A DNA stretch of 64,000 nucleotides from contig CAKROK010000001.1 of assembly GCA_934373295.1 (NCBI GenBank), positions 19,030 through 83,029 on the forward strand. The letters run 5' to 3'. The stretch is from an uncultured Christensenellaceae bacterium. Its GTDB lineage: Bacteria; Bacillota; Clostridia; Christensenellales; Christensenellaceae. Positions 3,163 through 46,404 of this stretch are shown here, piece by piece. Every line of letters starts with the position of its first letter. Position 1 is the stretch's first letter. The notes under the pieces are model-generated. The model saw nothing but the letters and a program-made list of their open reading frames with translations, searched no databases and was not told where the DNA came from. The translations under genes were made by a program, and so were the position numbers.

Positions 3163-3675
3163 TTATTTCTTAGTTGTAACCGTCTTTGCCTTGGACCATG
3201 CGGAGTAGACGTTATAGCTCTTTGCGCCTATCTTTGTGGTCTTATAGCTCCTGACCCTTACGTAATACTTCGCGGACGCCTTGAGCTTGGTCACCGTCTT
3301 TGAAGTCGTCGTGTACTTGGCTATCGTCGCAGTCTTTGTCGTCTTTGCCGTGAACTTGGAGGACGTCGAGTACTGTACCTGATAGCCCGTTACGTAGCTC
3401 TGCTTTGCCCATGTAGCCTTGAAGCCCTTGGAGAGCGCCGTCAGCTTGGATACGCTCATCTGCTTGCCGCGGATAGCGAACGTGAGCGTCTTTGTGCCGG
3501 TATAATTGCCCTTCATCGTGACTTTTACGGTGTACGTACCCGGGAGCTTTCTGCCGGAAGCATAGCTGACCGTGTAATTGGAGGAAGCGATCTTCTTGCC
3601 GTCGGCATCCGTCACCGTGACAGCGGGCTTTTTGACCTTGCCGTCATATGTATACAGCGTCGCAGCGAGCTTTAC
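3163..3675 (-). repeat. 513-nt direct repeat, copy 1 (shared C-terminal module of the two glycosidases)
   Basis: It aligns codon for codon and without gaps to 12209-12721, with 12 substitutions in 170 residues by my manual count. Long identical nucleotide runs include CCTTGAAGCCCTTGGAGAGCGCCGTCAGCTTGGATA. Confidence 0.9.
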
Positions 3676-9456: not shown

Positions 9457-9580
9457 TAAATGCTTCCTCCTGTTTATTTTTATAGCAATCATAATGCTAT
9501 GAAAACTTTTCACTGTGATTAAAGCTACTGTTAATAAAATACGATGCTGTTTTATTTCTTCTCGTTAATTTATATCAAAT

Positions 9581-12208: not shown

Positions 12209-12721
12209 TTATTTTTTCGTTGTTACTGCTTTCGCCTTAGACCATGCGGAGTAAACGTTATAGTTCTTTCCGCTTATCTTGGTGGTCTTGTAGCTTCTAA
12301 CTCTTACATAGTACTTCGTAGAAGCCTTGAGCTTGGTTACCGTCTTAGAGGTAGTCGTGTACTTGCTTATCGTCGCAGTCTTGGTCGTCTTTGCCGTGAA
12401 TTTCGAAGATGTCGAGTACTGTACCTGATAACCGGTCACGTAGCTCTGCTTTTTCCACGTCGCCTTGAAGCCCTTGGAGAGCGCCGTCAGCTTGGATACC
12501 GTCATCTGCTTGCCGCGGATAGCGAACGTGAGCGTCTTTGAGCCGGTGTAGCTGCCCTTCATGGTGACCTTTACGGTGTACGTGCCGGGGAGCTTTCTGC
12601 CGGAAGCGTAGGTCACGGTGTAGTTGGAAGAAGCTATCTTCTTTCCGTTTGCATCCGTCACCGTAACAGCGGGCTTCTTGACCTTGCCGTCATAGGTATA
12701 CAGCGTCGCCGCTAACTTGAC
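12209..12721 (-). repeat. 513-nt direct repeat, copy 2
   Basis: See copy 1 at 3163-3675. Same orientation, about 9 kb apart. Confidence 0.9.
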
Positions 12722-17728: not shown

Positions 17729-17970
17729 CTTTTTCTCCTTTACATGTTTTTCATTATCCATTGGACAATATAAATTTCGAGTAATCGATTACATTTTAAC
17801 TTGACATTCAGAACGGCACTATAAAATGTCTAAAAACCCCGTTAAACATCAATGTTTCACAGCATTAAGTGAAATGTTATCGAATACATGTATTTATTCT
17901 ATTATATTCAATAGGAGAAGTAAAATCAACAACTATTTTAAAAAAATATTATGTCATTTATCGTTTGATG

Positions 17971-27759: not shown

Positions 27760-28542
27760 TCAATCAATTTTTCTAAGGAAGGAGATGTTTTCACCCTTCA
27801 GTTCGACTTCATAACGGCACCTATCGCCCCTTACGAGCATTATCGCCATTTCGAACACCACGCCCTCCGCATCCTCCGATACTCGTTGTACAAAAAACGC
27901 GCTGCTGCCCGTCCGCGTGTTTAAAAGCTCCGCTTCGTTTGCGTCTATTATTGTAACGTCGTAGCTCTCCACGGCGCGCGCGGGCTTTAACCCGCTCACG
28001 TTTTCCAGCGTGCTGTATAACGGCTTATCGCGCAGAACGTCCTTTGAAAGCTGCGGACACAGGCGCACAGGGACAAAATCCGTCTCCAGCATGAGCGGCT
28101 GACCGTTCGCCCGCCGCAATCTCACGAATTTAAAGACGTCCTCCCCCTCCTTGAGCTTCATCCTCTCTATTAGGTCGCCCGTCGCAGGGATAGTCTCAAA
28201 GGATAACAGCTCAGATGAGGATTCCAGCCCGAGCATACTCATCTCCGCTGAAAAGCTGTAAAGATTTTTTAAGGTGCGCTTCAGCTTGGGCGAGGTCACG
28301 AACGTCCCCTTGCCGCGGTATCTCGCGATGATGCCCTCCTGCTCAAGCGCGGAAAACGCCTGTCTGATGGTGGAGCGGGACACGCCGAACTTTTCGCAAA
28401 GCTCCATTTCCGCCGGCAGCATATCGCCCTCACGCAATGTGCCGCTGTCGATGGAGCGCTTTATTATTGTTATGAGCTGTTGATACAGCGGAGTCTGTGA
28501 ATAGTAATCCAGCTCGCTGTCCATTATAGAGCGCATGTTCAT
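27760..28542 (-). CDS. GntR/HutC-family transcriptional regulator (wHTH plus UTRA effector domain)
   Basis: The N-terminus reads PLYQQLITIIKRSIDSGTLREGDMLPAEMELCEKFGVSRSTIRQAFSALEQEGII, followed by a UTRA-like C-terminal domain. ATG 28542 is preferred over TTG 28545 because AGGAG lies 6 nt upstream. Confidence 0.85.
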   Translation of the reverse strand: MNMRSIMDSELDYYSQTPLYQQLITIIKRSIDSGTLREGDMLPAEMELCEKFGVSRSTIRQAFSALEQEGIIARYRGKGTFVTSPKLKRTLKNLYSFSAEMSMLGLESSSELLSFETIPATGDLIERMKLKEGEDVFKFVRLRRANGQPLMLETDFVPVRLCPQLSKDVLRDKPLYSTLENVSGLKPARAVESYDVTIIDANEAELLNTRTGSSAFFVQRVSEDAEGVVFEMAIMLVRGDRCRYEVELKGENISFLRKID

Positions 28543-28565
28543 CAAAATCTCCTGAATTTAAAGAA

Positions 28566-28601: not shown

Positions 28602-29354
28602 TTACTTGTTTAACGCTTCCTGAGCGACGGACACAGATGCCGAAAGGCCGATCCTGTCCGCACCTGCGTCGAATAAGGTCATGGCAGTCTCAAGCGTCTT
28701 TACGCCACCATCGATCTTTATGCCGATGCCCCTGCCGAGAATCGAGCGGACGTATTTAACGTCCTCGACAACTGCCTTTTTGCCCGTGAGCGCGTTGCTT
28801 ATCTTACAAAACTGCACGCCGCTGCTGCGTATTATGAGCAGCGCCCTCTCTCTTTCGGAAGGCGTCAAAACGCCCTGTTCATATATCGCCTTTAGCTGAA
28901 CTCTGCCCTTGGCCGCGTCCACCATTGCGTCGAGGTCCCTTCTTGCGTCGTCGATGCGGCCGCTCTTTATGGCGTTTATGCTCAAAGAAACGTCAAGCTC
29001 ATCCGCGCCGTTTGCCGCACATTCGCGAATCTCCGCGACCTTTGCCGCGGTGGATTCACAGCCGTGCGGGAAGCCGACGGCAGAGCAGACCAGAACGCCC
29101 GAATCCTTTAACTGCCTTGAAGCAAAGGGAATAAAATAGGGGCTGACGACGATATTCGCAAAGCGATATTTCTTCGCCTCCTCACATCCCTTGATGATGC
29201 GCTCAAGCGCAGTATCGGGGTTTAAAAGAGAATGCTCGAGCTTGCCCGCGACCTCGTCCGGCCTTATGGAAAAACGAGCCTCCTCGATCTTCTGGCTTTC
29301 GACCTCGGCTAAAACCTTCTGCGTGACCTCGGCGATGATCTTATCTATATCCAT
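28602..29354 (-). CDS. DeoC/DERA-family class I aldolase with an N-terminal amphipathic extension
   Basis: It aligns by eye to DERA blocks: VCSAVGFPHG, ELDVSLSINAIKSG, LKAIYEQGVL, FCKISNALTGK and IKIDGGVK, so both lysine-bearing blocks are present. An extra N-terminal helix MDIDKIIAEVTQKVLAEVESQKIEE is present. Confidence 0.8.
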   Translation of the reverse strand: MDIDKIIAEVTQKVLAEVESQKIEEARFSIRPDEVAGKLEHSLLNPDTALERIIKGCEEAKKYRFANIVVSPYFIPFASRQLKDSGVLVCSAVGFPHGCESTAAKVAEIRECAANGADELDVSLSINAIKSGRIDDARRDLDAMVDAAKGRVQLKAIYEQGVLTPSERERALLIIRSSGVQFCKISNALTGKKAVVEDVKYVRSILGRGIGIKIDGGVKTLETAMTLFDAGADRIGLSASVSVAQEALNK

Positions 29355-29367
29355 AGTATTTCTCCCG

Positions 29368-29658
29368 TCAAGTCGTCTTTATAATCTTTCCGTCAAGGCT
29401 GTAATGGTCGAGAACGCCGCAGATGGTTATATCCGAAATCAGCCCCTTGTCCTCAAAGAGCATTTTTGCGGAGCCACCGTCCCTGCTCGTGAGGACTATG
29501 TCGCCTATGCCCGCATCAGCCGCGTCTAAGGCGATATCTCTCGAGCCGATGGGCTGCATGTTGAGATCAAGATATTCTATTATCATCATTTTGCGTCCGT
29601 AATGCGTCTCCTCTTTTATAGTGGAGACTACATTGCCGACAACTCTCGCAATTCTCAA
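29368..29658 (-). CDS. BMC-P pentameric vertex protein (EutN/CcmL/PduN family), paralog 4
   Basis: 96 aa. It reads MRIARVVGNVVSTIK...DAADAGIGDIVL...ICGVLD, a typical EutN pattern. Confidence 0.9.
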   Translation of the reverse strand: MRIARVVGNVVSTIKEETHYGRKMMIIEYLDLNMQPIGSRDIALDAADAGIGDIVLTSRDGGSAKMLFEDKGLISDITICGVLDHYSLDGKIIKTT

Positions 29659-29677
29659 ATCAATCGCCTCTCAATAA

Positions 29678-29953
29678 TTACATCGTGGGAAGAATGCCCT
29701 CGACGTCGTCATGCGGTCTGGGGATTACGTGTACGCCGTAGAGGTCGCCCACTCTCTTTGCGGCAGCCGCGCCTGCTTCAACAGCAGCCTTAACAGCGCC
29801 GACGTCGCCCCTTACCATTACGGTAACGAGACCGGAACCGATCTTTTCCTTGCCGATGAGGTGTACGTTAGCCGCCTTGACCATAGCATCCGCAGCTTCG
29901 ATAGAGCCGATGAGGCCCTTTGTTTCTACCATTCCGAGTGCCTGCTTTTCCAT
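29678..29953 (-). CDS. BMC-H hexameric shell protein (PduA/EutM type), copy B
   Basis: [26 protein letters not shown]...[17 protein letters not shown] is the canonical BMC domain. Confidence 0.95.
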
Positions 29954-29974
29954 TTTAAAAAGTCTCCTCTCAAA

Positions 29975-30241
29975 TTATAATACTTCGTTGTAATCGTCGA
30001 TAAAGCCTATGATAGCTAAATCACAGGGGACAAGCCCGTTCCTGAACACCAAAGAGCCTTCCTTGGAGGCGATCATATATACGAAATCTCCCACACCGGC
30101 CTGACGCGTCGCATCCCCGGCGATCACCCTCTTTGAGGGCTTGCCGTTGACGATTGTCTCAACCACTAAGAGCTTCACTCCGGTGAGATTTTCATTTTTT
30201 ACAGTGGACACGACCGAGCCGATAACTCTTCCGACATTCAT
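29975..30241 (-). CDS. BMC-P vertex protein, paralog 3
   Basis: 88 aa. It reads MNVGRVIGSVVSTVKNENLTGVKLLVVE...AGVGDFVY...IIGFID. Confidence 0.9.
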   Translation of the reverse strand: MNVGRVIGSVVSTVKNENLTGVKLLVVETIVNGKPSKRVIAGDATRQAGVGDFVYMIASKEGSLVFRNGLVPCDLAIIGFIDDYNEVL

Positions 30242-30257
30242 TTAACGCACCGTCTTT

Positions 30258-30548
30258 TTACGCTTCTTTTGCTTCCATGGAAGGAAGGATGCCCTCGACG
30301 TCGTCATGCGGTCTGGGGATTACGTGTACGCCGTAGAGGTCGCCCACTCTCTTTGCGGCAGCCGCGCCCGCTTCAACAGCCGCCTTGACTGCGCCGACGT
30401 CGCCCCTTACCATTACGGTAACGAGACCGGAGCCAATCTGCTCCTTGCCGATGAGGTGTACGTTCGCCGCCTTTACCATTGAATCAGCCGCTTCGATTGC
30501 GCCGATGAGACCCTTGGTTTCTACCATTCCGAGTGCCTGTTTTTCCAT
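30258..30548 (-). CDS. BMC-H hexameric shell protein, copy A
   Basis: Near-identical to copy B. By eye, the first roughly 90 nt of the aligned 3' portions match exactly. Confidence 0.95.
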
Positions 30549-30590
30549 TTTTGATTCTCCTTTTAAACTTTTATAGCTCTATATTCGTTA

Positions 30591-31136
30591 TTATACAAGT
30601 GATGCGAAAAGATCCGCATGGGGGGAAGGAATGACGACGCTTTCCGCCATGAGACCGGATATCTCCTCAAGACCCTCAGCAGCTGCCACGGATGCACGAA
30701 CCGCCGCGACCTCGCCCGTCATGGTGATGAACGCCTTGCCGCCTAAGCCTCTGCCTAATCTTATCTCGATGAGCGTGATGTCCGCCGCCTTGACCGCCGT
30801 ATCCGCCGCCAATATAGCCGCGGAAAGGGAGAACGTCTCCATAATGCCCACCGCGTTCATGTTTTCGACCTCGGTGCAGGAGGCGACCGCCGTAACGACC
30901 TGCGGATGAACGTTGGGGATGACTATCGTATCGACGAGCTTTTCCGCCGCCGTATTCACGCCCGCATCCACCGCCGCGCGCACCGCCGCGACCTCGCCCG
31001 TGACCACGGCAATATACTTGCCCGCACAGACGGAATGCGCTGCGCTAAGGCTGACATCCGCCGCTTTAAGCATAGCGTCCGCCGCCTCAATGCCCTTGGG
31101 TATGCTGTTTAATTCTACCATGCCTAATGCAATCAT
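30591..31136 (-). CDS. BMC-T tandem-domain shell protein, PduT-like
   Basis: It has two BMC domains (ALGMVELNSIPKGIEAADAMLKAADV and AVGIMETFSLSAAILAADTAVKAADI). A Cys in VCAGKY sits where the PduT pore Fe-S ligand would be. Confidence 0.85.
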   Translation of the reverse strand: MIALGMVELNSIPKGIEAADAMLKAADVSLSAAHSVCAGKYIAVVTGEVAAVRAAVDAGVNTAAEKLVDTIVIPNVHPQVVTAVASCTEVENMNAVGIMETFSLSAAILAADTAVKAADITLIEIRLGRGLGGKAFITMTGEVAAVRASVAAAEGLEEISGLMAESVVIPSPHADLFASLV

Positions 31137-31137
31137 T

Positions 31138-32457
31138 TTACTTTACCTCTATCGTTATGGAATCGTTGGTCACAGCAGTGACAGTTCCGCTGATGCTCGC
31201 GTGGATCTTTGCCCCCAAAGCACCTTCCTTAATATCCGCAATAAGGTCGCCTCTTGAAACGGCCTGACCCGCCGACACGACGGGGACCGCAGGTGCGCCT
31301 ATGTGCATTTTGAGCGGTATCTTCACGCAATCAACGCTCATCAGCTCGTCGTTGAGAGGAGCGGGAACGTCATATTGCTTTATGCCCAGCCTGCCTATCA
31401 TGCGCGATACGGGGACTCTCTTGTTTTCGATGCCCTTATCGACCGTCGTATAAACCTCTTTTTTGGGCTTGATGCCCGCCTGCGCAAGACCCTGCTTCAT
31501 CCTCTGCATCATGCGCGAGGGAGCAAGACCGAAGTTGCATGCGAAGTAGGTACATACGCCGCAGTCACAGCAGGAGAATATGCCGTTCACATCACCTAAC
31601 AGCTTTCCGTCGTTCTGCGCCGACGCACGCATTGCGAGATGCGGCTGAACGTTTAAGCCAAGGGCGTTTCTCGGACACATCTGCGTACACATAGAGCATT
31701 GACAGCAGACCGCCTTGGCGAGCTTCAGATCCCTCGCCGGGTCGTTCGTCTTTGCCATGATGACGTGAGAATCCGTCTTGAAAACGAGTATGCCGCCCGT
31801 GGTCTTGGTGACGGGTGTGTTTATGTCCTTAGTCAGCTTGCCCATGCACGGGCCGCCGAGAACTATCGTATAATCGGAAAGATCTGCGGGAGCGCCCGCC
31901 GCCTTTAACAGAATGCTTATCGGAGTACCGATGGGAACCTTGAGCGTGATGGGGTTTTTGACCTCGCCGCCCACGGTCACATACTTGTCTATAACAGGCG
32001 TGCCGTCTATCGCCGCAGCGATGTTCATGAGCGTAGAGACGTTATCCACCACGCAGCCGACGTCCAGCGGAAGTCCGCCCGTGGGGACGACTCTTCCCGT
32101 GACCTCATATACCATCTGCTGCTCATCGCCCGCCGGATAATAGCTCTTAAACAGCTTGAGCTCGACATCCGTTCCCTTGACGGCCTCTGAAAGCGCGGTT
32201 ACTGCATCATGATAATGCTCCTTTAGGCATATCACCGCGTGCTTTGCGCCCGTCGCCTCTTTGACCGCGGTTATGCCCTTTACGACCATATCCGCGTGTA
32301 CTGCCATGAGCTGCTGATCGACCCTCAAAAGGGGCTCGCATTCCGCGCCGTTGGCGATAATGTATTCCGCCTTGCAGTTTACCTTGACGTGTGTGGGAAA
32401 GCCCGCGCCGCCCGCGCCGACTATACCCGCATCACGAATGTTATCAATTAAGCTCAT
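31138..32457 (-). CDS. PduS/RnfC-like Fe-S flavoprotein
   Basis: It has the GAGGAGFPTHVK NADH/FMN motif, an SLBB-like middle region, two ferredoxin-type cysteine clusters (CCQCSMCTQMCP and CCDCGVCTYFAC) and a C-terminal barrel-sandwich-like segment. Confidence 0.85.
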   Translation of the reverse strand: MSLIDNIRDAGIVGAGGAGFPTHVKVNCKAEYIIANGAECEPLLRVDQQLMAVHADMVVKGITAVKEATGAKHAVICLKEHYHDAVTALSEAVKGTDVELKLFKSYYPAGDEQQMVYEVTGRVVPTGGLPLDVGCVVDNVSTLMNIAAAIDGTPVIDKYVTVGGEVKNPITLKVPIGTPISILLKAAGAPADLSDYTIVLGGPCMGKLTKDINTPVTKTTGGILVFKTDSHVIMAKTNDPARDLKLAKAVCCQCSMCTQMCPRNALGLNVQPHLAMRASAQNDGKLLGDVNGIFSCCDCGVCTYFACNFGLAPSRMMQRMKQGLAQAGIKPKKEVYTTVDKGIENKRVPVSRMIGRLGIKQYDVPAPLNDELMSVDCVKIPLKMHIGAPAVPVVSAGQAVSRGDLIADIKEGALGAKIHASISGTVTAVTNDSITIEVK

Positions 32458-32476
32458 CTTTAAATCCTCTCAAAAA

Positions 32477-33880
32477 TCAGATGATCCTGAAATCGCCCTT
32501 TACTACGCATCTTCTCTTTCTCGTGAAGGAGCGAGCGGAGGTCAGGCCCTCGCCCGTAGGCGTCGCTATGGTAAGGGTGGAATAGCCCTCACCCGTGAGA
32601 CCCAGACCTGCATAAGAGGGGCCGTTCTTTACGAAGATGGTCGTGTTCATGACCTTTGCGGCTCTTGAAAGTCTCTTGATGTTGGTGGAGTGTATCATCG
32701 CGGAATGCCAGCAGCCGTTCTCCGCTCTGAACGCCTCCGCAAGGCACTCTTCAAAGTCAGCCACTCTCGCGATACCTAAAATGGGCATCATCATCTCGGT
32801 GTGGATGAAGGGGTGATCCTTGTCAACCTCACAGATTATCAGCCTAGGGTCGCCGGTGTAGGATACGCCCGCAGCGTCCATGATGAAGGAGGGGCAGTGA
32901 CCGACGAACTTTCTGTTGATGACCCACTTGCCGTTCTTCTGCATGAGGACGGTATTCTTGATCTTTTCGATGTCGTCGCCGTATACTCTCATAGCGCCGT
33001 TCTTGGTCATCTCGCTCATGAGCTGATCGGCTATGGATGCTACCGCGAAGCACTCCTTTTCCTCAAAGCACATCACGTTGTTATCGAGCGACGCGCCGTC
33101 GACTATGTCCTTAGCCGCCTTGGGGATATCCGCAGTCTCGTCGACCATTACGGGCGGGTTGCCGGGACCTGCGCAGATGGCCTTCTTGCCGGACTTCATA
33201 GCAACCTTGACGATGCCCTCGCCGCCCGTTACCGCGAGCAGCTTGATGTCGGGATGGCTCATTATTATGTTGGAGGATTCGAGGTTGGGCTCCTTAGCCG
33301 CAACGACGAGGTTCGCGGGGCCGCCCGCCTCGATGATAGCCTCGTTCATTATCCTCATGGCCTCCTGCGAGCATCTCTTTGCGGCGGGATGGGGGTTGAA
33401 TACGACCGCATTGCCCGCAGCTATCATGCTCATGGAGTTGTTTACGACTGTTGAAGTCGGGTTTGTCGAAGGGGTTATTGAGCCGATAACGCCGTAGGGC
33501 GCAGATTCAACGATCGTAAGTCCGTCGTCTCCGGAGAACGCCTCCGTCTGAAGATCCTCGATGCCGGGAGTCTTCTGCGCGGTCAGGATGTTCTTCTTGG
33601 TCTTATCCTCGACTCTGCCGTAGCCCGTCTCCTCGTGAGCGAGCTTCGCAAGGTACTCTGCATTTTTGATGGCCGCCGCTCTCATAGCCTCGACGAGCCT
33701 GCCCCTCTCCTCAAGGGTCATGTTCATCAGCTTAAACTGAGCCGCCTTTGCCGCCGCGATGGCGTCGTTGACGTCGTCAAAGAGACATCCACCGTCGGAA
33801 ACCTTGCTGCTTTCCTGCGCCATCAGCTTTGAGACTGTGTCGCGGATGATTGTACGGATTTGTTCATCTGTAAAGCTCAT
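32477..33880 (-). CDS. CoA-acylating aldehyde dehydrogenase (PduP/EutE type) with an N-terminal encapsulation-peptide-like helix
   Basis: It has ALDH-fold motifs GAGNPP-like (CAGPGNPP) and a catalytic Cys block LDNNVMCFEEKE. The N-terminus is MSFTDEQIRTIIRDTVSKLMAQ. Confidence 0.9.
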   Translation of the reverse strand: MSFTDEQIRTIIRDTVSKLMAQESSKVSDGGCLFDDVNDAIAAAKAAQFKLMNMTLEERGRLVEAMRAAAIKNAEYLAKLAHEETGYGRVEDKTKKNILTAQKTPGIEDLQTEAFSGDDGLTIVESAPYGVIGSITPSTNPTSTVVNNSMSMIAAGNAVVFNPHPAAKRCSQEAMRIMNEAIIEAGGPANLVVAAKEPNLESSNIIMSHPDIKLLAVTGGEGIVKVAMKSGKKAICAGPGNPPVMVDETADIPKAAKDIVDGASLDNNVMCFEEKECFAVASIADQLMSEMTKNGAMRVYGDDIEKIKNTVLMQKNGKWVINRKFVGHCPSFIMDAAGVSYTGDPRLIICEVDKDHPFIHTEMMMPILGIARVADFEECLAEAFRAENGCWHSAMIHSTNIKRLSRAAKVMNTTIFVKNGPSYAGLGLTGEGYSTLTIATPTGEGLTSARSFTRKRRCVVKGDFRII

Positions 33881-33926
33881 TTCAATTACCTCTTTCTCTG
33901 CTTATGCCAAAATGTTTATATGTTTC

Positions 33927-34604
33927 CTATTTATCTTCTTTAGGCTTGTTTGCCTTTGTCTGCTTTTTAGGTGCGGCTTTTTTCGCGCTCTCCTCATCAT
34001 CTAACTTTTTGATGATCTCCTCGACGATGCGCTTTGCCTCGTCCTCCTCGCCCGCCTTGGGCTTGGGCGCCGCCTTCTTTGAAGCCTGCTTTTTAGGCTT
34101 GGTCTGCGTCATTTTAAGCTCGGTCTGCTCGGGCTTTGCCGCAGCCTTATCCTGTGTTTTGGGCTGTTCCGCCGGCTTTTTCGCAGGGGCTTTCGCCGTT
34201 TTATCGGGCTTTTCGATTTTCTCCTGTTTTTCCTGCTTTATCGGCTCGGGCTTGCTCTCCGGCTTCTTTTCGGCTTTTTCTGCCTTTGCCGCGGCGGGCT
34301 TTACGCTCGGGTCGGCCTTGTCAAAGCACCTTTCGCCCAGTATATCCACGCTGTCGATTATCGCGACTATGCAATTATCGACGGGGCGCGCGTCCGTGAG
34401 GGCTGTCTGTCTGGAGGACGAACCGGATACGCACATGACCAGCTCTCCGTCGCCCGCGCCCACGCTGTCTATCGAGACGAACGGCGCGCCCTTTTCCTCA
34501 AATGTCACCATATCTATCGGCTGGCAGACGAGTATTTTAAAGCCCATCAGCTTTTCAGCCTTTTTTGTGCTTATCACCTGTCCGCAGACTCTTGCTAACT
34601 GCAT
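33927..34604 (-). CDS. BMC-P vertex domain fused to a roughly 130-aa K/A/P/E-rich low-complexity tail containing an encapsulation-peptide-like helix
   Basis: Residues 1-95 are EutN-like (MQLARVCGQVISTKK...GAGDGELVM...IVAIID). Residues 96-225 read ADPSVKPAAAKAEKAEKKPESKPEPIKQEKQEK...EEDEAKRIVEEIIKKLDDEE...KANKPKEDK. Confidence 0.85.
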   Translation of the reverse strand: MQLARVCGQVISTKKAEKLMGFKILVCQPIDMVTFEEKGAPFVSIDSVGAGDGELVMCVSGSSSRQTALTDARPVDNCIVAIIDSVDILGERCFDKADPSVKPAAAKAEKAEKKPESKPEPIKQEKQEKIEKPDKTAKAPAKKPAEQPKTQDKAAAKPEQTELKMTQTKPKKQASKKAAPKPKAGEEDEAKRIVEEIIKKLDDEESAKKAAPKKQTKANKPKEDK

Positions 34605-34607
34605 CTT

Positions 34608-34913
34608 TTAAACCTCCGTGGGATATTTTTCATATACCCTGCGTCCTTTTATGTCTATTGAATCGAGGATCCCCAAAAGGGTCATGTCGGCGGGAGCTGT
34701 TTTAGTCTCCTCAGCCTGTCTGGATGAGCTTCCTCCGACGCACATCACTATCTCGTCCTGTCCCGCGCCCACGCCGTCCATAACGACTACCGGGTCGCCC
34801 GAATCCTCCATTGTCTCTATGTTAAGGGGCTGTACGATGAGCAGCTTCCAGCCCTCCAGCGCACGCGCCTTGGTCGTGCTGACCGCCGTTCCCCTTACTC
34901 TTCCTATCATCAT
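34608..34913 (-). CDS. BMC-P vertex protein, paralog 1
   Basis: 101 aa. It reads MMIGRVRGTAVSTTKARALEGWKLLIVQP...GAGQDEIVM...LLGILD. Confidence 0.9.
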   Translation of the reverse strand: MMIGRVRGTAVSTTKARALEGWKLLIVQPLNIETMEDSGDPVVVMDGVGAGQDEIVMCVGGSSSRQAEETKTAPADMTLLGILDSIDIKGRRVYEKYPTEV

Positions 34914-34925
34914 AAGTCAGTCACC

Positions 34926-35624
34926 TCAAAAATCGATGCTCACTCCGAGCTCGCTCGCCCTGTCTCGCGCAAGCGGCGTTATTATGGCATCCTTTTCGCA
35001 CAGCACGCGCATTGTGCCGTTCTCGGCCGCCTCGTTGACCTCGTTTTCCGTGACGAGCGCCGCGCGGCAAACTTCGCCGAACTCCTGCGCCGGGCGGTAT
35101 GCTATCACGCGCACGCCCATGCCCGTGAGTATGTCTATCGCGTCCACGACCTTTGCGAAGAACGTCGAGCGCTTGAACTTGGGCGTTTCAAAATCGAGCA
35201 GCAGCGTGACCCGCCTGCCCCACAGCAGCGGGCGTAAAAACGCCTGTTCTATAAAGCCCTCGTCATCGCCCTCCGCGAGCTTATAAAGCTGCGTGAGCTT
35301 GGGCGTCACGAGTACGATATCCGCCGCGCCGGCGATCATCTGAAACAGCTCCGCCTCGTCGTGCTCGTCCTTTACCTCAAACGCAAAGCATCCGGGCGCG
35401 CAGAACTCCACCCCGTTAAACAGCGCGCATTGTATGCCCGTGCCGAAGTGCTTTTTAAGGTATTCGCCGCAGGTCTTTTTTGAAGGCACAAAAGACGTAA
35501 ACAGAGCCACCGTCCCGCTTACGTTTTCGTTCTTTTCATCCTGATATTGTATTGTCTTAACGACCTCCTCGACTATCTTTGAGATGAGCGCCTCGAGATC
35601 GATATTACCAAGGTCAAAAGCCAT
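34926..35624 (-). CDS. BMC-associated protein of unknown function (first gene of the operon) with an N-terminal encapsulation-peptide-like helix
   Basis: The N-terminus is DLEALISKIVEEVVKTIQYQ. The C-terminal roughly 45 aa read LVTENEVNEAAENGTMRVLCEKDAIITPLARDRASELGVSI, which recalls the xITxxDv...IITPxAR...G segment I remember from EutQ-type N-termini (from memory, unverified). I saw no catalytic motif. Confidence 0.75.
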   Translation of the reverse strand: MAFDLGNIDLEALISKIVEEVVKTIQYQDEKNENVSGTVALFTSFVPSKKTCGEYLKKHFGTGIQCALFNGVEFCAPGCFAFEVKDEHDEAELFQMIAGAADIVLVTPKLTQLYKLAEGDDEGFIEQAFLRPLLWGRRVTLLLDFETPKFKRSTFFAKVVDAIDILTGMGVRVIAYRPAQEFGEVCRAALVTENEVNEAAENGTMRVLCEKDAIITPLARDRASELGVSIDF

Positions 35625-40908: not shown

Positions 40909-42414
40909 ATGTTTAAAAACGTGCTTGACTGCTTCGAAAATACGGCGGATAAATACGCGGAAAGGCCCGCGGTCACGGACGAAAACACGACCATCAGCTA
41001 CCGCGAGCTTAAAAACCGCGCGCAAAAAATGGGCGGCGCTTTGGCGGGCATGATATCCCAAAGGCAGCCCGTCGCGGTTTACGGCGATAAGAGCATCTCC
41101 GTCCTATGCGCATTTTTGGGCATAGCCTATGCGGGAGGGTGCTATACCTTATTAAACCCCGAGCTTCCCGAGGACCGCTTAAAGACGGTCTGTACTCTCA
41201 TAAATTCCGACTTCATATTGACGGACGACGAGCATTTTAAAAGAGCGTCCGAGCTTTTTTGCGATAAAAAAATAATACTCATAAGCTCCCTTTTGGATAT
41301 GCCGGCGGAAAATTCGGCGCTTCTTGTTGAGCGGCGCAGACGCTCGATAGACACCGACCCGCTCTACATCAACTTCACATCCGGCTCGACGGGCGTGCCC
41401 AAGGGCATAGTCGTGAGCCACCGCAGCGTGATGGATTTCATATCCTGCTTCACCGAGCTTTTTGACATCGGCGATACAGACGTCATCGGCAATCAGGCGC
41501 CCTTTGATTTTGACGTCTCCGTTAAGGACATATACTCCGCGCTGTTCACAGGCGCAAGGTTGGTCATTATACCGCGCAGACTGTTCTCCGCCCCCACCGC
41601 GCTAATAGACTATATCTGCGAAAACGGCGTGACGACTATGATATGGGCGGTCTCCGCATTAAGCCTGTTAAAGACGTTCCACGCGCTGGAATACAAAAAT
41701 CCCGCGAACGTGCGCAAGGTGCTTTTCAGCGGCGAGGTCATGCCGAATAAAGTGTTAAATTATCTTCGCCGCTTTTTGCCAAATGCGCTTCTCGTCAACC
41801 TATACGGCCCGACGGAAATAACCTGCAACTGCACCTACCATATCCTCTCCCCCGAAAGGGATTACGCGGACGGCATACCCATCGGCATACCATTCCCCAA
41901 CGAAGATGTCTTTTTACTGGACGATGAAAACCGCGAGATAACGGAAAAAGATGTTTCAGGCGAGGTATGCGTGCGCGGGACGGCGCTCGCGCTGGGGTAT
42001 TACCGCGCGGACGACGAAAATGAAAAACACTTCACGCCAAACCCGCTCAATGGCTGCTATCCCGAAAGGATATACCGCACGGGCGATCTCGCAAAATACG
42101 ACCAAAACGGCGAGTTGGTATTCTGCGGCAGGAAGGACTTTCAGATAAAATACATGGGGCACCGCATTGAGCTGGAGGAGATCGAGCGCAGGATGGCCGA
42201 GACGAACGGCGTCGAGCAATGCTGCTGCATCTTTGACGATAAAAAGCAGCGGTTAAAGGGCTATTACATCGGCAGCATCGACAAGGCCGAGCTTCATTCG
42301 ATATTAAAAGGCTCACTGCCCGCGTTCATGGTACCCGGAATACTGCATAAGCTGGAGAGCTTCCCGCTCACCAAGAACGGGAAGACGGATCGCAAAAAGT
42401 TAGCGGATTTATAG
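40909..42414 (+). CDS. DltA-like carrier-protein ligase (stand-alone adenylation enzyme)
   Basis: 501 aa with AMP-binding core motifs FTSGSTGVPKG, YGPTE, YRTGD and the C-terminal PLTKNGKTDRKKL. Size and layout match DltA. Confidence 0.85.
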   Translation: MFKNVLDCFENTADKYAERPAVTDENTTISYRELKNRAQKMGGALAGMISQRQPVAVYGDKSISVLCAFLGIAYAGGCYTLLNPELPEDRLKTVCTLINSDFILTDDEHFKRASELFCDKKIILISSLLDMPAENSALLVERRRRSIDTDPLYINFTSGSTGVPKGIVVSHRSVMDFISCFTELFDIGDTDVIGNQAPFDFDVSVKDIYSALFTGARLVIIPRRLFSAPTALIDYICENGVTTMIWAVSALSLLKTFHALEYKNPANVRKVLFSGEVMPNKVLNYLRRFLPNALLVNLYGPTEITCNCTYHILSPERDYADGIPIGIPFPNEDVFLLDDENREITEKDVSGEVCVRGTALALGYYRADDENEKHFTPNPLNGCYPERIYRTGDLAKYDQNGELVFCGRKDFQIKYMGHRIELEEIERRMAETNGVEQCCCIFDDKKQRLKGYYIGSIDKAELHSILKGSLPAFMVPGILHKLESFPLTKNGKTDRKKLADL

Positions 42415-42423
42415 GAGAAACAT

Positions 42424-43596
42424 ATGGAAAGAAACGTCTTTGCGTCCTCCGGCGCGTATTATACATTCGACATACCCGCCTTAAAGCGCAGGATTGCATA
42501 TTTGAGAAAAAATCTTCCCGAAAACGTCGATCTATGCTACGCCGTCAAGGCGAACACGTTTATCGCGGGCGATATTGCGGATGAAATCGACCGCTTTGAG
42601 ATATGCTCCCCCGGCGAAAGCCTGATATGCGATAGATCAGGCATTAGCGCGGATAAGACGGTGATATCGGGCGTATATAAAAGCCCCGAGCATATAGAAT
42701 CGCTCGTTAAAGCGGGCGGCGGGCGCATATATACCGCGGAATCCCCGCGTCAATTCGACCTGCTCCTCGCATTATCCCAAAAATACGATTCCACCATTCC
42801 CGTTTTGCTTCGTATAACCAACGACAGCCAGTTCGGCATGGAGCAAGCGGACATCGAGAAGATAATAAGCGAGAGAAAATCGCATAAAAACATCGATATT
42901 TTGGGTATACAATTCTTTTCGGGAACGCAAAAGACCTCCCTTAAAAAGCTAAACAGGGAGCTTAAAATGCTGGATGAATTCATCGCCCGCCTATATGAAG
43001 AATACCGCTTTACCGTGCGCGAGCTGGAATACGGCACTGGCTTCCCCGTGAGCTACTTCACGGAGGACGAGTTTGACGAGGATGAGTTTTTGAGGGGATT
43101 TAGCGAGCTTTTAGCCAACCTCAATACAGACGCCAAAATCACTCTCGAGCTGGGCAGGAGTATCGCCGCGAGCTGCGGCTGCTACTACACCGACATCGTG
43201 GACATAAAGCACAACAAGGGACAGAATTACGTCCTCATAGACGGCGGTATGCACCAGCTTGTCTACTTCGGTCAGCACATGGCCATGAAGCACCCGTTCA
43301 TGCACGTCGTCGGAAAGGAAAACGCCCAGCCCACCGCGCTTTGGAACATATGCGGCTCGCTGTGCTCGATGAACGACATCGTCTCAAAGCAGGTCCCGCT
43401 GCCCGACATAGCCGTGGGCGACAAGCTGTGCTTTAAAAACACGGGCGCATACTGCCCCACCGAGGGCATATCCCTCTTTTTGAGCAGAGACCTCCCCGCC
43501 GTATACAAGATATATGAGAACGGCGAGACCCGGCTCATAAGGCCCAACATCGAAACAGCGCAATTTAACATGTTATATAATGAAAGGAGCTTTTAA
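42424..43596 (+). CDS. Fold-type III PLP enzyme of the Orn/DAP/Arg decarboxylase family (divergent)
   Basis: It has CYAVKAN (PLP lysine), ELGRSIAA (for EPGR), LIDGGMHQL and CGSLCSMNDIV. The usual HxHIGS and GGG blocks are altered to IQFFSGTQ and YGTGF. Confidence 0.8.
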   Translation: MERNVFASSGAYYTFDIPALKRRIAYLRKNLPENVDLCYAVKANTFIAGDIADEIDRFEICSPGESLICDRSGISADKTVISGVYKSPEHIESLVKAGGGRIYTAESPRQFDLLLALSQKYDSTIPVLLRITNDSQFGMEQADIEKIISERKSHKNIDILGIQFFSGTQKTSLKKLNRELKMLDEFIARLYEEYRFTVRELEYGTGFPVSYFTEDEFDEDEFLRGFSELLANLNTDAKITLELGRSIAASCGCYYTDIVDIKHNKGQNYVLIDGGMHQLVYFGQHMAMKHPFMHVVGKENAQPTALWNICGSLCSMNDIVSKQVPLPDIAVGDKLCFKNTGAYCPTEGISLFLSRDLPAVYKIYENGETRLIRPNIETAQFNMLYNERSF

Positions 43597-43597
43597 C

Positions 43598-43825
43598 ATG
43601 GAAAACCTCATAGAGATACTCGAAAACATTCAGCCGGACATCGATTACGATACCTGCACCGACCTTATAGACGGTCATCGTTTTGACTCTCTTTCCATCA
43701 TCTCGCTTATTTCGGAGTTAGAGGATGAATTTGACATAACCATCCCCGCCGTGGATATAATCCCCGCGAATTTCAACTCCGCGCAAGCTATCTGGAAGAT
43801 GATCTGCCGCCTTCAGGAGGATTAA
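43598..43825 (+). CDS. DltC-like acyl/peptidyl carrier protein (75 aa)
   Basis: The phosphopantetheine site is FDSLSIISLISELEDEF. I moved the start to ATG 43598, which has GGAG 9 nt upstream and lies 2 nt after the preceding stop. Confidence 0.8.
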   Translation: MENLIEILENIQPDIDYDTCTDLIDGHRFDSLSIISLISELEDEFDITIPAVDIIPANFNSAQAIWKMICRLQED

Positions 43826-43828
43826 AAG

Positions 43829-45475
43829 ATGTCCTCTACCGCTGCTGCTGAAACTACGCTTTTGACCGGCAAATTCAGCGATCTGACCTCGTTCTTTTCG
43901 CTCATATATTTGGCGGTCTTTCTTCCCGTATGCATTATTGGCTATTCGCTCATGCCAAAAAAGCTCAAGAAGTACTTTTTACTCGTCGCGAGCTTCTGTT
44001 TTTATTTTCTCATAAGCGGAAAGCTGCTGGTATACCTGCTTTTGGCGATAGTCGTCACATTCCTTTTTGGATTATGGCTCGATAATGTCGGCTCAAAGCG
44101 GGATATCATATTAAAGCAGACGGAAAAGAGCGAAAGAAAAGCGGTAAAAAAGCGGTTTTTACACTACAGCAGATGGATACTCGCCTTTGCGGTGACGCTT
44201 TTGGCGGGCGGTCTGCTCGTCTTTAAGTACTCCGCATTCGCGCTCTCCAACATAAATGTGCTTTTCAGGGCGATGGATGTGTCATTTAGGCTGAAGGTTC
44301 CGTCCTTCATCATGCCCATCGGCATATCATTTTTCTCACTGATGGCGATATCCTACCTCGTGGACGTATACCGCGGCGTGATCCCCGCCGAGAAAAAGCC
44401 CTTTAAGCTCGCGCTGTGGCTCTCGTATTTCCCGCAGATAGTCGAGGGCCCTATTTGCAGGTATTCTCAAACCGCGGACGCGCTTTGGAGCGTGGAGAAG
44501 ATAAAGTTTGATAACCTCACCCTCGGATTGCAAAGAATACTATTCGGCCTCATGAAAAAGCTGGTCGTCGCGGACAGGCTAAACACGCTCGTCTCCGCCG
44601 TTTTTGAAAATTACAGGGAATACAGCGGCGGCATAATCGCGCTCGCGGCAATTTGCTATACGATACAGCTCTACATGGACTTTTCAGGCTCGATGGACGC
44701 GGTCGTGGGTACTGCGCAGATATTCGGCGTGACCATGCCCGAAAACTTCAACCACCCGTTCTTTTCAAAGACCATTTCCGAGTTCTGGACACGCTGGCAT
44801 ATCTCGCTCGGCGCGTGGTTTAAGGACTATATCTTCTATCCGCTGACCATGTCAAAGCCCTTAAAAAAGCTCACGTCAAACGCGCGTAAGAAGATAGGCA
44901 ATCACTACGGCCCGCTGCTTTCGGGCAGCATAGCCCTGCTGTGCGTTTGGTTCTTAAACGGCCTCTGGCACGGCTCGGATTGGAACTACATTTTCTTCGG
45001 GATGTATCATTTCGTGCTCATACTCTGCGGCAGTCTCATATCTCCCCCGTCGAAATGGCTATGCCATAAGCTGAAGATAAAGACGGACTCATGGCCATAT
45101 AAGGCAATGCAGATAGTGCGCACCATCATTTTCGTCATAATCGGCGAGCTGTTCTTCCGCGCGGAGGGACTCAATAACGGTCTCAACATGTTCTCTAAGA
45201 TGGTAGGCTCGTTTAGCTTCACGGCGCTCACCCCCACCCTGCTCGAAAAGCTGGGCGTGGACATAGCCGATCTCATAATAGTCGGCGTTACGGTCGTCAT
45301 AGTTTTGGTCGTGAGTATTTTAAACGAACGGGGCATATGCATACGCACGTCCTTAAAGAAGAAAAACGTCGTGCTGCGCTGGGCGATATGGTATGCTCTC
45401 ATATTGTTCATAGTGATTTTCGGCGCATACGGCCGCGGATATATCCCCGTCGACCCGATGTACGCAAACTTTTGA
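43829..45475 (+). CDS. MBOAT-family membrane O-acyltransferase (DltB/AlgI-like)
   Basis: It is polytopic, with MBOAT blocks FWTRWHISLGAWFKDYIFYPL and FLNGLWHGSDWNYIFFGMYH (conserved His). Confidence 0.9.
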   Translation: MSSTAAAETTLLTGKFSDLTSFFSLIYLAVFLPVCIIGYSLMPKKLKKYFLLVASFCFYFLISGKLLVYLLLAIVVTFLFGLWLDNVGSKRDIILKQTEKSERKAVKKRFLHYSRWILAFAVTLLAGGLLVFKYSAFALSNINVLFRAMDVSFRLKVPSFIMPIGISFFSLMAISYLVDVYRGVIPAEKKPFKLALWLSYFPQIVEGPICRYSQTADALWSVEKIKFDNLTLGLQRILFGLMKKLVVADRLNTLVSAVFENYREYSGGIIALAAICYTIQLYMDFSGSMDAVVGTAQIFGVTMPENFNHPFFSKTISEFWTRWHISLGAWFKDYIFYPLTMSKPLKKLTSNARKKIGNHYGPLLSGSIALLCVWFLNGLWHGSDWNYIFFGMYHFVLILCGSLISPPSKWLCHKLKIKTDSWPYKAMQIVRTIIFVIIGELFFRAEGLNNGLNMFSKMVGSFSFTALTPTLLEKLGVDIADLIIVGVTVVIVLVVSILNERGICIRTSLKKKNVVLRWAIWYALILFIVIFGAYGRGYIPVDPMYANF

Positions 45476-45486
45476 GGTGAACGTCA

Positions 45487-46404
45487 ATGAAACAGTTTTT
45501 TAAACATGTATGCACAGGCGCAGTATTTATAATAATACTCGCAATTCTGCTGGGCGCGGCATCCTTCGTCTTTAACCCCAAGGATAACTCAAAAAAAGCC
45601 GGGATGCAAGACCCCACCGCACATGGCTATCTCGCCGAGCCGGAAAACAGCATAGACGTATTGTTCGTGGGCGACAGCGAGTGCTACAGCGCATTTTCAC
45701 CAAAGGTCATTTGGAAACAGCAGGGCATAACCTCATACGTATGCGGCACGCCCGGTCAAAAGCTGTATTATTCGCTTGAAATGATAGAAGAAGTCTTTAA
45801 AAGGCAGTCTCCCAAGATCGTCGTATTGGAGACAAACGCCATATACAGAAAATTCGCGAGAAAATCGGTAGCAGTAAACGAAGTCGAGCTTGCGCTGCCC
45901 ATATTCAGATATCACGACCGCTGGAAGACTTTAAGCGCGGACGACCTCAATTTCAATACGCAATACACGCATATCGAAAAGAACAGAGGCTATCGCGTCA
46001 ATAAGGATGTTCGCTCGGTCTCCCCCGGAAAGTACATGAAAAAGACCAAGATTCGAGAGACCATACCGAAAATCAACCTCGATTATATGGATAAGATAAT
46101 CTCACTTTGTGAGGAGCACGGCGCGCAGCTCATTCTGGTGAGCACGCCCAGCACCAAGAACTGGAGCTATAAGCGACATAACGGCATAAAGGAATATGCC
46201 GAGGAAAAGGGGCTTAAATACATCGACCTCAACACCGCCAAAAAGCTCAAAATAGACTGGACAAAGGATACCCGCGACCACGGAGACCACCTGAACCACT
46301 CGGGCGCAAAAAAGGTCTCAAAGTACATGGGAAAGTACTTCAAAAAGACAGGGCTTTTTGAGGATAAGCGCGGACGCACGGAATATGCGTCATGGGACGA
46401 GTGA
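45487..46404 (+). CDS. Membrane-anchored SGNH/DHHW-type protein in the DltD position
   Basis: It has an N-terminal TM segment, a block I-like LFVGDSECYS and a C-terminal DHGDHLNHSGAKK (DxxH-like block). Confidence 0.65.
   Translation: MKQFFKHVCTGAVFIIILAILLGAASFVFNPKDNSKKAGMQDPTAHGYLAEPENSIDVLFVGDSECYSAFSPKVIWKQQGITSYVCGTPGQKLYYSLEMIEEVFKRQSPKIVVLETNAIYRKFARKSVAVNEVELALPIFRYHDRWKTLSADDLNFNTQYTHIEKNRGYRVNKDVRSVSPGKYMKKTKIRETIPKINLDYMDKIISLCEEHGAQLILVSTPSTKNWSYKRHNGIKEYAEEKGLKYIDLNTAKKLKIDWTKDTRDHGDHLNHSGAKKVSKYMGKYFKKTGLFEDKRGRTEYASWDE

Follow-up and report, generated by a model that had tools for sequence, protein, structure and literature searches.

A Putative Reduced SPU4-Type Microcompartment Operon without a Phosphotransacylase Gene in an Uncultured Christensenellaceae Bacterium

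Organization of the Operon

The DNA analyzed here, referred to as the window, is a 64,000-nucleotide stretch from the genome of an uncultured Christensenellaceae bacterium (assembly GCA_934373295.1, contig CAKROK010000001.1, positions 19,030 to 83,029), and its minus strand carries an operon that appears to encode a bacterial microcompartment (BMC) containing an aldolase related to deoxyribose-phosphate aldolase (DERA). Eleven co-directional open reading frames (ORFs), spaced 1-46 bp apart by the coordinates of the ORF list, run from 35624 to 28602 in the order U (a 232-aa protein), BMC-P, BMC-P, aldehyde dehydrogenase (AldDH), PduS, BMC-T, BMC-H, BMC-P, BMC-H, BMC-P, and aldolase, followed by a gene for a GntR-type regulator (Table 1). 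Seven of these genes encode shell proteins (two BMC-H, four BMC-P, and one PduT-type BMC-T), and alongside them are encoded a PduS homolog and three cargo proteins with N-terminal amphipathic helices resembling encapsulation peptides (EPs), namely the DERA-like aldolase, the CoA-acylating AldDH, and the flavoprotein-fold protein U. Domains were called with Pfam and NCBIfam, and EP-like helices were judged by hydrophobic moment and amphipathic windows. An earlier reading made from the letters of the DNA without database searches (the sequence-only reading) had described the eleven-gene operon with its promoter, hairpin, and domain assignments, and all of these were confirmed by ORF coordinates, Pfam/NCBIfam, and site inspection.

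The promoter is the sole 12/12 site in the region, and the same architecture was seen in two of the related loci compared below (L084 and L004); the form TTGACAAA-N9-ATACATTTAxAAT is conserved in the homologous operons of the window, L084, and L004. The hairpin lies between the aldolase gene and the GntR gene, which in L084, without the hairpin, are only 6 bp apart.

Table 1. Features of the microcompartment operon and the adjoining regulator gene, in window coordinates.
Feature	Coordinates	Strand	Evidence or description
Candidate GntR/HutC-type operator	35755-35741	-	Perfect inverted repeat AATGTAT-G-ATACATT upstream of the promoter, read from the sequence
Promoter, sigma-70 type	35689-35661	-	TTGACA-17-TATAAT, 12/12 match
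U, eut_hyp-like protein, 232 aa	34926..35624	-	Fold model, N-terminal helix, position in relatives
BMC-P, 101 aa	34608..34913	-	PF03319, 87.7 bits
BMC-P with tail, 225 aa	33927..34604	-	PF03319, 89.6 bits; BMC-P domain residues 1-~96
CoA-acylating AldDH, EutE/PduP type	32477..33880	-	PF00171; NF011927, 654 bits
PduS homolog (MNdh)	31138..32457	-	PF01512 162 bits, PF13534, PF10531, PF13375; rnfC subfamily 275 bits
PduT-type BMC-T^s (BMC-T^SE), 181 aa	30591..31136	-	Two PF00936 domains; TIGR02526 eut_PduT 130 bits, below cut-off
BMC-H, 96 aa	30258..30548	-	PF00936, 100.8 bits
BMC-P, 88 aa	29975..30241	-	PF03319, 64 bits
BMC-H, 91 aa, near-duplicate of the first	29678..29953	-	PF00936, 101.6 bits
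BMC-P, 96 aa	29368..29658	-	PF03319, 71.6 bits
Type-B DERA-like class I aldolase, 250 aa	28602..29354	-	TIGR00126 183.5 bits vs 117.3; PF01791 28.3 bits vs 23.8
Hairpin, terminator-like	28588-28566	-	8 pairs, 6 G-C, T-rich tail (TTCTTTAAAT)
GntR/HutC-family regulator, winged helix + UTRA	27760..28545	-	PF00392, PF07702

Assignment to the SPU4 Subtype

Sugar-phosphate utilization (SPU) microcompartments are characterized by a pfam01791 aldolase, usually accompanied by a pfam02502 RpiB, together with an AldDH and at least three BMC-P, and seven subtypes have been described (Dwyer 2024, PMC11585597; Sutter 2021). SPU4 is the Firmicutes subtype, with AldDH, DeoC bearing an N-terminal extension, an eut_hyp-like protein, a triplet of BMC-P, and two BMC-H similar to each other (Sutter 2021; PMC11585597). 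Its loci almost all encode a phosphotransacylase (PTAC), with triose-phosphate isomerase (TPI) also prominent, and RpiB is present in 18 of 29 curated loci, being missing from the other 11 as well as from all SPU5 loci (PMC11585597). BMC-T^dp does not occur in SPU4, while a PduS-associated BMC-T^s is found in 14 of 33 loci, and SPU4 loci in gut bacteria have been noted in earlier literature.

The window encodes the SPU combination of a pfam01791 aldolase with an N-terminal amphipathic extension, an AldDH with an EP-like N-terminus, and four BMC-P, and it also has two similar BMC-H, a PduS-associated BMC-T as in part of the SPU4 loci, no BMC-T^dp, and a Clostridia host. Since these shell and accessory hallmarks of SPU4 are accompanied by a putative eut_hyp-like flavoprotein with an EP-like helix, the locus is, judged by its gene content, an SPU4-type microcompartment and thus of an already catalogued kind. 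The matches of the aldolase to PF01791 and TIGR00126 likewise uphold the DeoC-signature, SPU-class operon proposed in the sequence-only reading. The hosts of SPU4 are Firmicutes/Clostridiales, including gut R-7 Christensenellaceae, and the genomes nearest to the window are human-gut Christensenellaceae metagenome-assembled genomes (MAGs), with 83% identity in the aldolase. Among the published tree entries listed, the SPU4 loci of 'Clostridiales R-7' have a 181-aa PduT-type BMC-T, a 101-aa BMC-P, and two adjacent BMC-P genes; by comparison of lengths and locus tags, this adjacent pair lies two locus tags from the BMC-T, as in the window. A literature search combining Christensenella and microcompartments gave nothing specific.

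The correspondence with a catalogued subtype, which the sequence-only reading had raised as a possibility, holds for these hallmarks but not gene for gene. The consensus PTAC, TPI, and RpiB of SPU4 are all missing from the window, which has in addition four BMC-P where the subtype has a triplet or more, one of them with a long charged tail, and an attached GntR/UTRA regulator. The lack of PTAC, taken by itself, does not make the locus new, because the PTAC-less subtypes SPU2, SPU3, SPU5, and SPU6 are catalogued (PMC11585597). These share with the window a DERA-family aldolase and an AldDH without PTAC, acetyl-CoA being proposed to leave the shell. However, PTAC-less SPU loci 'typically encode a BMC-T^dp', a possible exit for acetyl-CoA (PMC11585597), and the four subtypes belong to other phyla and usually encode RpiB, whereas the window has neither this large gated pore nor RpiB.

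Regeneration of NAD+

Compared with the textbook metabolosome core of signature enzyme, AldDH, PTAC, and alcohol dehydrogenase (ADH), the window lacks both PTAC and ADH. The AldDH has its catalytic Cys271 in the motif NNVMCFEEK, and about 34 residues precede its Pfam domain, with an EP-like helix in the amphipathic window 6-19. The PduS homolog comprises an FMN/NADH-binding domain, SLBB, two 4Fe-4S motifs, and an RnfC barrel-sandwich domain, and its gene is separated by 1 bp from that of the single tandem-domain BMC-T. The pore cysteine of the latter lies in C-A-G-K, and almost every BMC-T sequence from the related loci shares the motif VCAGKY.

Sutter et al. (PNAS 2024, PMC11275729) counted 361 ADH-less loci that combine AldDH with a PduS/PduT pair, and gave evidence from structure, footprinting, and activity measurements for oxidation of NADH by the PduS homolog (MNdh), the electrons exiting via the 4Fe-4S cluster of the PduT-type trimer (BMC-T^SE). 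The window resembles this module in having an AldDH, no ADH, and a PduS homolog adjacent to a PduT-type trimer with a pore cysteine, although it reads CAGK, as does the related set, and the published pore motif is CPGK/CSGK. Because the PduS/PduT pair is a published alternative for recycling NAD+, the missing ADH, which the sequence-only reading had counted as a gap in the core, is ordinary and agrees with a common design; by analogy, the MNdh/BMC-T^SE pair plausibly covers the role of ADH here.

Loss of the Phosphotransacylase in One Clade

PTAC (pfam06130), although expected in SPU4, was detected neither in the operon nor elsewhere in the window. The Pfam-scanned larger ORFs of the window included no PTAC, Pta, ADH, TPI, RpiB, kinase, or further shell gene, no canonical DERA was found within the window, and a tblastn search of all 64 kb, seeded with the PTAC, TPI, and ADH of relatives, gave no match. 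The sequence-only reading had reported PTAC and ADH, and likewise any kinase, isomerase, or transporter, as absent from the operon; the first absence now extends to the window by Pfam and tblastn, and the second to its scanned ORFs. TPI (pfam00121), not in the window, is present in Oscillospiraceae and Synergistaceae relatives.

For comparison, we used 80 genomic loci encoding relatives of the aldolase as well as loci from protein look-ups, in which ORFs were called on the operon strand and clustered, and cluster representatives were annotated. The shared core of the relatives reads PTAC, U, BMC-P, AldDH, PduS, BMC-T, BMC-H, BMC-P, BMC-H, BMC-P, and aldolase. PTAC is directly adjacent in 45 of the 49 loci that have sequence upstream of U, and there is none only in the window, L084, and L019, the last being a Synergistaceae locus with a 237-aa ORF of no matching family at the PTAC position. 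The exact gene order of the window, without PTAC, recurs in L088 (proteins 80-97% identical, flanks syntenic) and, in unrelated genomic contexts, in L090 (56-95%) and L084 (50-92%), the 12-gene module including GntR being intact in all three; L091, also in an unrelated context, has the same PTAC-less 5' half up to BMC-T, where its contig ends. An intermediate form is seen in L004, with PTAC, two BMC-P genes, and GntR. As the module is intact across diverged relatives, three of the four in other contexts, the arrangement is under selection rather than an assembly artefact or a product of recent decay, and the comparison of loci indicates that the loss of PTAC is real, lineage-specific, old, and stably inherited in one clade. 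The combination of no PTAC with no BMC-T^dp is the main structural novelty of this clade.

The same comparison bears on the possibility of decay, in which the operon would be what is left of a more complete SPU4 locus and would no longer build a working organelle. PTAC, canonical DERA, TPI, and ADH have indeed been lost relative to most relatives. However, none of the eleven ORFs is disrupted and their catalytic residues are retained, the promoter matches the consensus perfectly, and the reduced gene set has been kept in at least four further lineages, with some proteins down to 56% identity, a persistence that requires long-term purifying selection. Decay is accordingly regarded as highly improbable.

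Another arrangement, compatible with the explanation preferred below, is a satellite locus elsewhere in the genome that supplies an EP-bearing PTAC, and possibly a canonical DERA, TPI, or ADH, so that a standard SPU4 system would be split over two sites. Loci that are split or have satellites are on record for SPU types, with one or two components encoded elsewhere in two SPU4 cases (Sutter 2021), and the adjacency of PTAC to the same core in nearly all related loci points to a function that is usually needed; moreover, the view of this genome spans 64 kb only. On the other side, 'Generally no satellite loci' is reported for SPU4 (Sutter 2021), and PTAC, ADH, TPI, canonical DERA, and extra shell genes are absent not only from the window but also from ~10 kb on either side of L084, L088, and L090 and from the sequence upstream of L091. 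A split system is thus considered unlikely.

The PTAC-containing sisters belong to Christensenellales, Oscillospirales, Synergistaceae, and Treponema, and examples are Christensenella hongkongensis HKU16 (L066), Faecousia intestinalis (L025), and the metagenomic locus L092. They have the same core order from U to the last aldolase (type B, described below) with 31-96% protein identity, but they start with PTAC, have a single BMC-P before AldDH, and most encode a canonical EP-bearing DERA. They also variably include TPI, Fe- or Zn-ADH, SDR, a GFO/MocA oxidoreductase, a class II aldolase, ribulose-phosphate epimerase, and DeoR/SorC regulators. L092 is like the window in its terminal GntR/UTRA gene and in having type B as its sole aldolase, and differs in beginning with PTAC.

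The accessory genes of the related loci come in sets around the constant core (e.g., L025 9995-11624, L066, L020, and L013), such as TPI with Fe-ADH and DeoR or two Zn-ADH with SorC; further sets consist of SDR, GFO/MocA, and class II aldolase or of ribulose-phosphate epimerase and two SDR. The SPU4-like core has the look of a transferable unit for handling acetaldehyde that is combined with differing sugar pathways. Four Treponema loci from termite-gut MAGs (L041, L048, L050, and L069) have a longer PTAC (280-304 aa), followed directly by BMC-P with no separate U, and this PTAC may be fused to the U protein or replace it; of the two DeoC-family genes upstream in each of L048 and L069, one encodes a C-terminal extension rich in Cys (CEKCGKCTSKCP). 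L013 and L020 are typical Clostridia-type SPU4 cores deposited under 'Burkholderiales bacterium MAG137'; wrong binning or labelling, and not horizontal transfer, is the probable cause.

The Aldolase and Its Substrate

The best PDB matches of the aldolase are DERAs (E 4e-44), and Gram-positive DERAs showed ~40% identity to it in the alignments inspected. It shares with canonical DERA (E. coli DeoC; TIGR00126; PDB 6d33, 1jcl) the class I TIM barrel, the Schiff-base Lys, and the Asp/Lys relay, and differs in an extra 34-residue EP-like N-terminal extension; the DERA domain begins at about residue 35, and the amphipathic MDIDKIIAEVTQKVLAEVE ahead of it is conserved in 30 homologs. The residues D121, K184, and K213 are kept as the equivalents of E. 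coli D102, K167, and K201, whereas N187, A188, L189, D215, and E40 stand in place of T170, G171, K172, A/S203, and D16, and Val occupies the position of E. coli C47 in the window enzyme and its closest relatives. The canonical K-T-S-T-G block is not kept but reads K-I-S-N-A-L, an ungapped substitution of F-V-K-T-S-T-G-F in the solved DERAs, and the K-I-S-N and I-K-I-D-G-G blocks are invariant in the 30 homologs. E. coli numbering follows a reference sequence that is a few residues short at the C-terminus, in which positions 16, 47, 102, 167, and 201 were checked; the alignments of the key lysines were seen independently against PDB DERAs, and positions 236-239 are unreliable.

Two types of DERA-family enzyme are encoded in the related loci, and 63 unique type-A sequences were compared with 79 unique type-B sequences. 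Type A is canonical (KTSTG, VKASGG); its deoC-model scores are 268-290 bits, its N-terminus is usually EP-like, and its position in the locus varies. Type B, to which the window enzyme belongs, scores 183 bits, is likewise EP-like at its N-terminus, and is in every case the final gene of the shell core. The catalytic D102, K137, K167, and K201 are invariant in both types, whereas D16, T168, and T170 of type A are E, I, and N in type B, G171 is replaced by A, M, or V, the S or A at position 203 by D, and the A at position 202 by I; K172 is Phe or Tyr in type A. Both types occur together in at least 32 loci, as most relatives add a canonical EP-bearing DERA, and type B is the sole aldolase in the window clade and in the PTAC-containing sister L092. 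On these sequence differences, type B constitutes a distinct, uncharacterized DERA paralog class, and no mention of two DERA classes was found in Dwyer 2024. The deviating motif CKISNALTGK, pointed out in the sequence-only reading, proved to be diagnostic of this class.

According to a review of DERA engineering (PMC8403123), G171 and K172 form part of the phosphate pocket, the retro-aldol activity of E. coli DERA on deoxyribose-5-phosphate (dR5P) is lowered by G171A, phosphate is bound less well when negative charge lies near the pocket, and C47V reduces inhibitory aldehyde adducts; the K172 position is Phe in the B. halodurans DERA. These observations bear on the alternative that the compartment is real but that its substrate is not dR5P, type B cleaving another aldol, for example a non-phosphorylated or substituted 2-deoxy sugar, still with release of acetaldehyde, and the GntR/UTRA regulator sensing that compound. 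The differences fixed between type B and co-resident type A would agree with this, since they include named pocket residues at which G171A and acidic substitutions shift E. coli DERA away from dR5P. So would the gap of about 100 bits between the types on the deoC model, the role of type B as sole aldolase of the window clade and L092, and the co-occurrence of two EP-bearing types, which argues against simple redundancy. However, type B still scores above the curated deoC equivalog cut-off and keeps the phosphate-binding G204 and G205, as well as Ser/Thr at 238, although this last position lies in the unreliable part of the alignment. Furthermore, K172 is not conserved in bona fide DERAs either, as the Phe of B. 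halodurans and the Phe/Tyr of type A illustrate, and the genes neighboring the type-B-only loci suggest no alternative substrate. We therefore treat a different substrate as possible but on the unlikely side. The doubt about dR5P expressed in the sequence-only reading gains force from the existence of a separate paralog class beside canonical DERA, while remaining unproven.

The First Gene of the Operon

Protein U, which the sequence-only reading had left without an identity, matched no Pfam family, but Foldseek on an AlphaFold2 model identified a flavoprotein fold. The model, built from 25 homologs (pLDDT 82), comprises an N-terminal helix (residues 10-28), an alpha/beta domain, and a small C-terminal domain; the alpha/beta domain resembles PPC decarboxylase, UbiX, EpiD, and DmrB (E 1e-5 to 1e-3, TM ~0.5 on target), and residues 13-26 have the top hydrophobic moment of the whole protein. 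The C-terminal 37 residues match TIGR02536 (eut_hyp) with 28.5 bits against a cut-off of 152.6, and there is no PF02441 match; this ~40-aa motif is common to the C-terminus of eut_hyp and has a weaker likeness to the N-terminus of EutQ. Homologs of U occupy the same position in 51 related loci. An eut_hyp-type, pfam02441-flavoprotein-related protein with a 30-40-residue N-terminal amphipathic extension, taken as an EP, is found in nearly every SPU4 locus (Sutter 2021, Supplementary Data 2). The modeled U, a predicted flavoprotein of the HFCD/UbiX/PPC-decarboxylase fold with an EP-like helix, fits this protein. That U might be a diverged RpiB, the second SPU signature enzyme, was also considered and rejected, there being no Pfam or NCBIfam match to RpiB and a model that fits HFCD/UbiX flavoproteins.

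Shell Proteins

The four BMC-P proteins (PF03319) have 30-48% mutual identity. A second BMC-P between U and AldDH, the 101-aa protein, is found only in the window, L084, L088, L090, L091, and L004, and the domain of the tailed BMC-P is the ortholog of the single BMC-P at that position in PTAC-containing relatives. The tail is ~129 aa long, rich in Lys, Ala, Glu, and Pro (K36 A22 E18 P15), with a basic terminus, and is probably disordered; close to the end of the tail lies a helix (EAKRIVEEIIKKLDDEE, residues ~188-203, moment 0.77) that is the most amphipathic of the protein and resembles the EPs of cargo enzymes. Tail length in the orthologs is 0, ~85, ~120, or ~155 aa, and the tail sequence is almost unconserved; inspected by eye, the tailed ones each seem to keep a short helix-like segment and a basic end. 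The tail could tether cargo to the vertex. That the charged tail or the additional BMC-P might stand in for PTAC was considered and rejected, as L004 has two BMC-P and PTAC and the PTAC-less L090 is tailless.

The two BMC-H, which are separated by a BMC-P gene, have 95.6% protein and ~92% DNA identity. Their DNA is perfectly identical over 80 nt (codons ~61-87) and differs at synonymous sites on either side, a pattern that suggests gene conversion between these paralogs.

The Regulator and the Flanking Genes

The best models of the GntR gene product are of the HutC subfamily (PhnF, HutC, and trehalose repressor), all below their cut-offs. Its gene directly follows the aldolase gene in L084, L088, L090, L092, L004, L010, L046, and L077 across differing genomic contexts. 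Because it does so whatever lies beyond, this conserved position places the gene within the BMC module, and its product is a probable regulator of the operon; the flanks of the operon, described as unrelated in the sequence-only reading, are therefore not so on the GntR side. In other branches of the family, the regulators are of the DeoR or SorC type, which bind sugar phosphates, and this is consistent with a sugar-phosphate inducer. The palindrome upstream of the promoter (Table 1) is a candidate operator only, and TGTA..TACA-related elements lie upstream of the homologous operons in L084 and L004. The ORF call starts the GntR gene at TTG 28545, whereas ATG 28542, 6 nt after AGGAG, gives the 260-aa length of the orthologs and is the likelier start. 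Its stop lies 9 bp from the start of prmA, and in this genome it may be co-transcribed with the prmA-rsmE-miaB-like genes.

Elsewhere in the window, two giant ORFs on the minus strand, one of 2116 aa (3163-9513) with GH2 glycosidase and CE2 esterase domains and one of 1850 aa (12209-17761) with CBM4/9 and Big_2 domains, probably encode surface-associated carbohydrate-active proteins, and between them on the plus strand lies a 698-aa ORF (9895-11991) with no Pfam match. A plus-strand cluster at 40909-46404 encodes an AMP-binding enzyme, an Orn/DAP-decarboxylase-like pyridoxal-phosphate enzyme, an MBOAT membrane acyltransferase, and a 305-aa protein that matched no Pfam family; this four-gene cluster recalls the Dlt/AlgI-type acylation systems of the cell envelope, for which the decarboxylase-like member is unusual.

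Proposed Mechanism and Implications

Taken together with its GntR/UTRA gene, the operon probably encodes a reduced SPU4-type catabolic microcompartment of a gut Christensenellaceae-like host that works as follows. The aldolase would cleave a 2-deoxy-sugar phosphate, most likely dR5P, inside the shell; glyceraldehyde-3-phosphate would leave and acetaldehyde would be trapped, to be converted by the AldDH with CoA and NAD+ into acetyl-CoA and NADH. NAD+ would be regenerated by PduS (MNdh) instead of an ADH, its Fe-S clusters handing electrons to the pore-located 4Fe-4S cluster of the neighboring PduT-type trimer, through which they would leave the shell. Because the lineage has lost the PTAC gene, no locus-encoded enzyme would recycle CoA, and either slow exchange of acetyl-CoA and CoA across the shell or recruitment of a PTAC encoded elsewhere may take its place. 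Repression of the perfect-consensus promoter is probably the task of the GntR/HutC-type protein and would be relieved when a sugar-phosphate effector binds to its UTRA domain. In this scheme, the substrate and the route of CoA are what we infer.

Several points weigh against this explanation. Type B is, by alignment, invariantly altered at substrate- and phosphate-pocket positions of the E. coli enzyme (T170N, G171A, K172L, A203D, and D16E), G171A and added acidity near the pocket are reported to disfavor dR5P (PMC8403123), and the canonical EP-bearing DERA resident in most relatives means that type B may have a different job. Neither the locus nor the ORFs scanned across the window include a gene that would supply the substrate (kinase, phosphorylase, mutase, or transporter); no route for CoA or acetyl-CoA is evident, and the BMC-T^dp pore linked to PTAC-less SPU loci (PMC11585597) is absent here. 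In addition, the candidate operator is a palindrome picked out by eye, and the literature found contains no experiment on an SPU4 locus, an SPU6 DERA being the one enzyme assayed (Dwyer 2024). A more far-reaching interpretation, in which type B is not a dR5P aldolase but a neofunctionalized paralog acting on another deoxy sugar, and the window encodes a minimal, functionally new microcompartment without PTAC or large pore, is considered doubtful.

The finding is real, yet it is largely explained by the existing catalogues, that is, by the SPU4 type and the published design without ADH. What is new is the clade-specific minimal architecture lacking PTAC, BMC-T^dp, TPI, RpiB, and canonical DERA, the recognition of its sole aldolase as a member of a distinct uncharacterized paralog class, and the tailed BMC-P.

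SPU compartments are among the most widespread bacterial organelles, and none has been characterized in vivo. The lineage described here has the smallest natural version among the loci compared, with eleven genes, three or four enzymes, and one regulator, and it belongs to a health-associated gut family. Since this clade breaks the published pattern linking the lack of PTAC to BMC-T^dp, it is well suited for a clean test of the means by which a shell lets CoA and acetyl-CoA through or spares them. In most of the related loci, two encapsulated enzymes of the DERA family are encoded, of which it is type B, the uncharacterized one, that is never missing. If type B is an ordinary DERA, the locus would simply be a trimmed member of SPU4; if, on the contrary, the enzyme acts on another substrate in a compartment with neither PTAC nor large pore, an unrecognized way of moving or sparing CoA would be implied.

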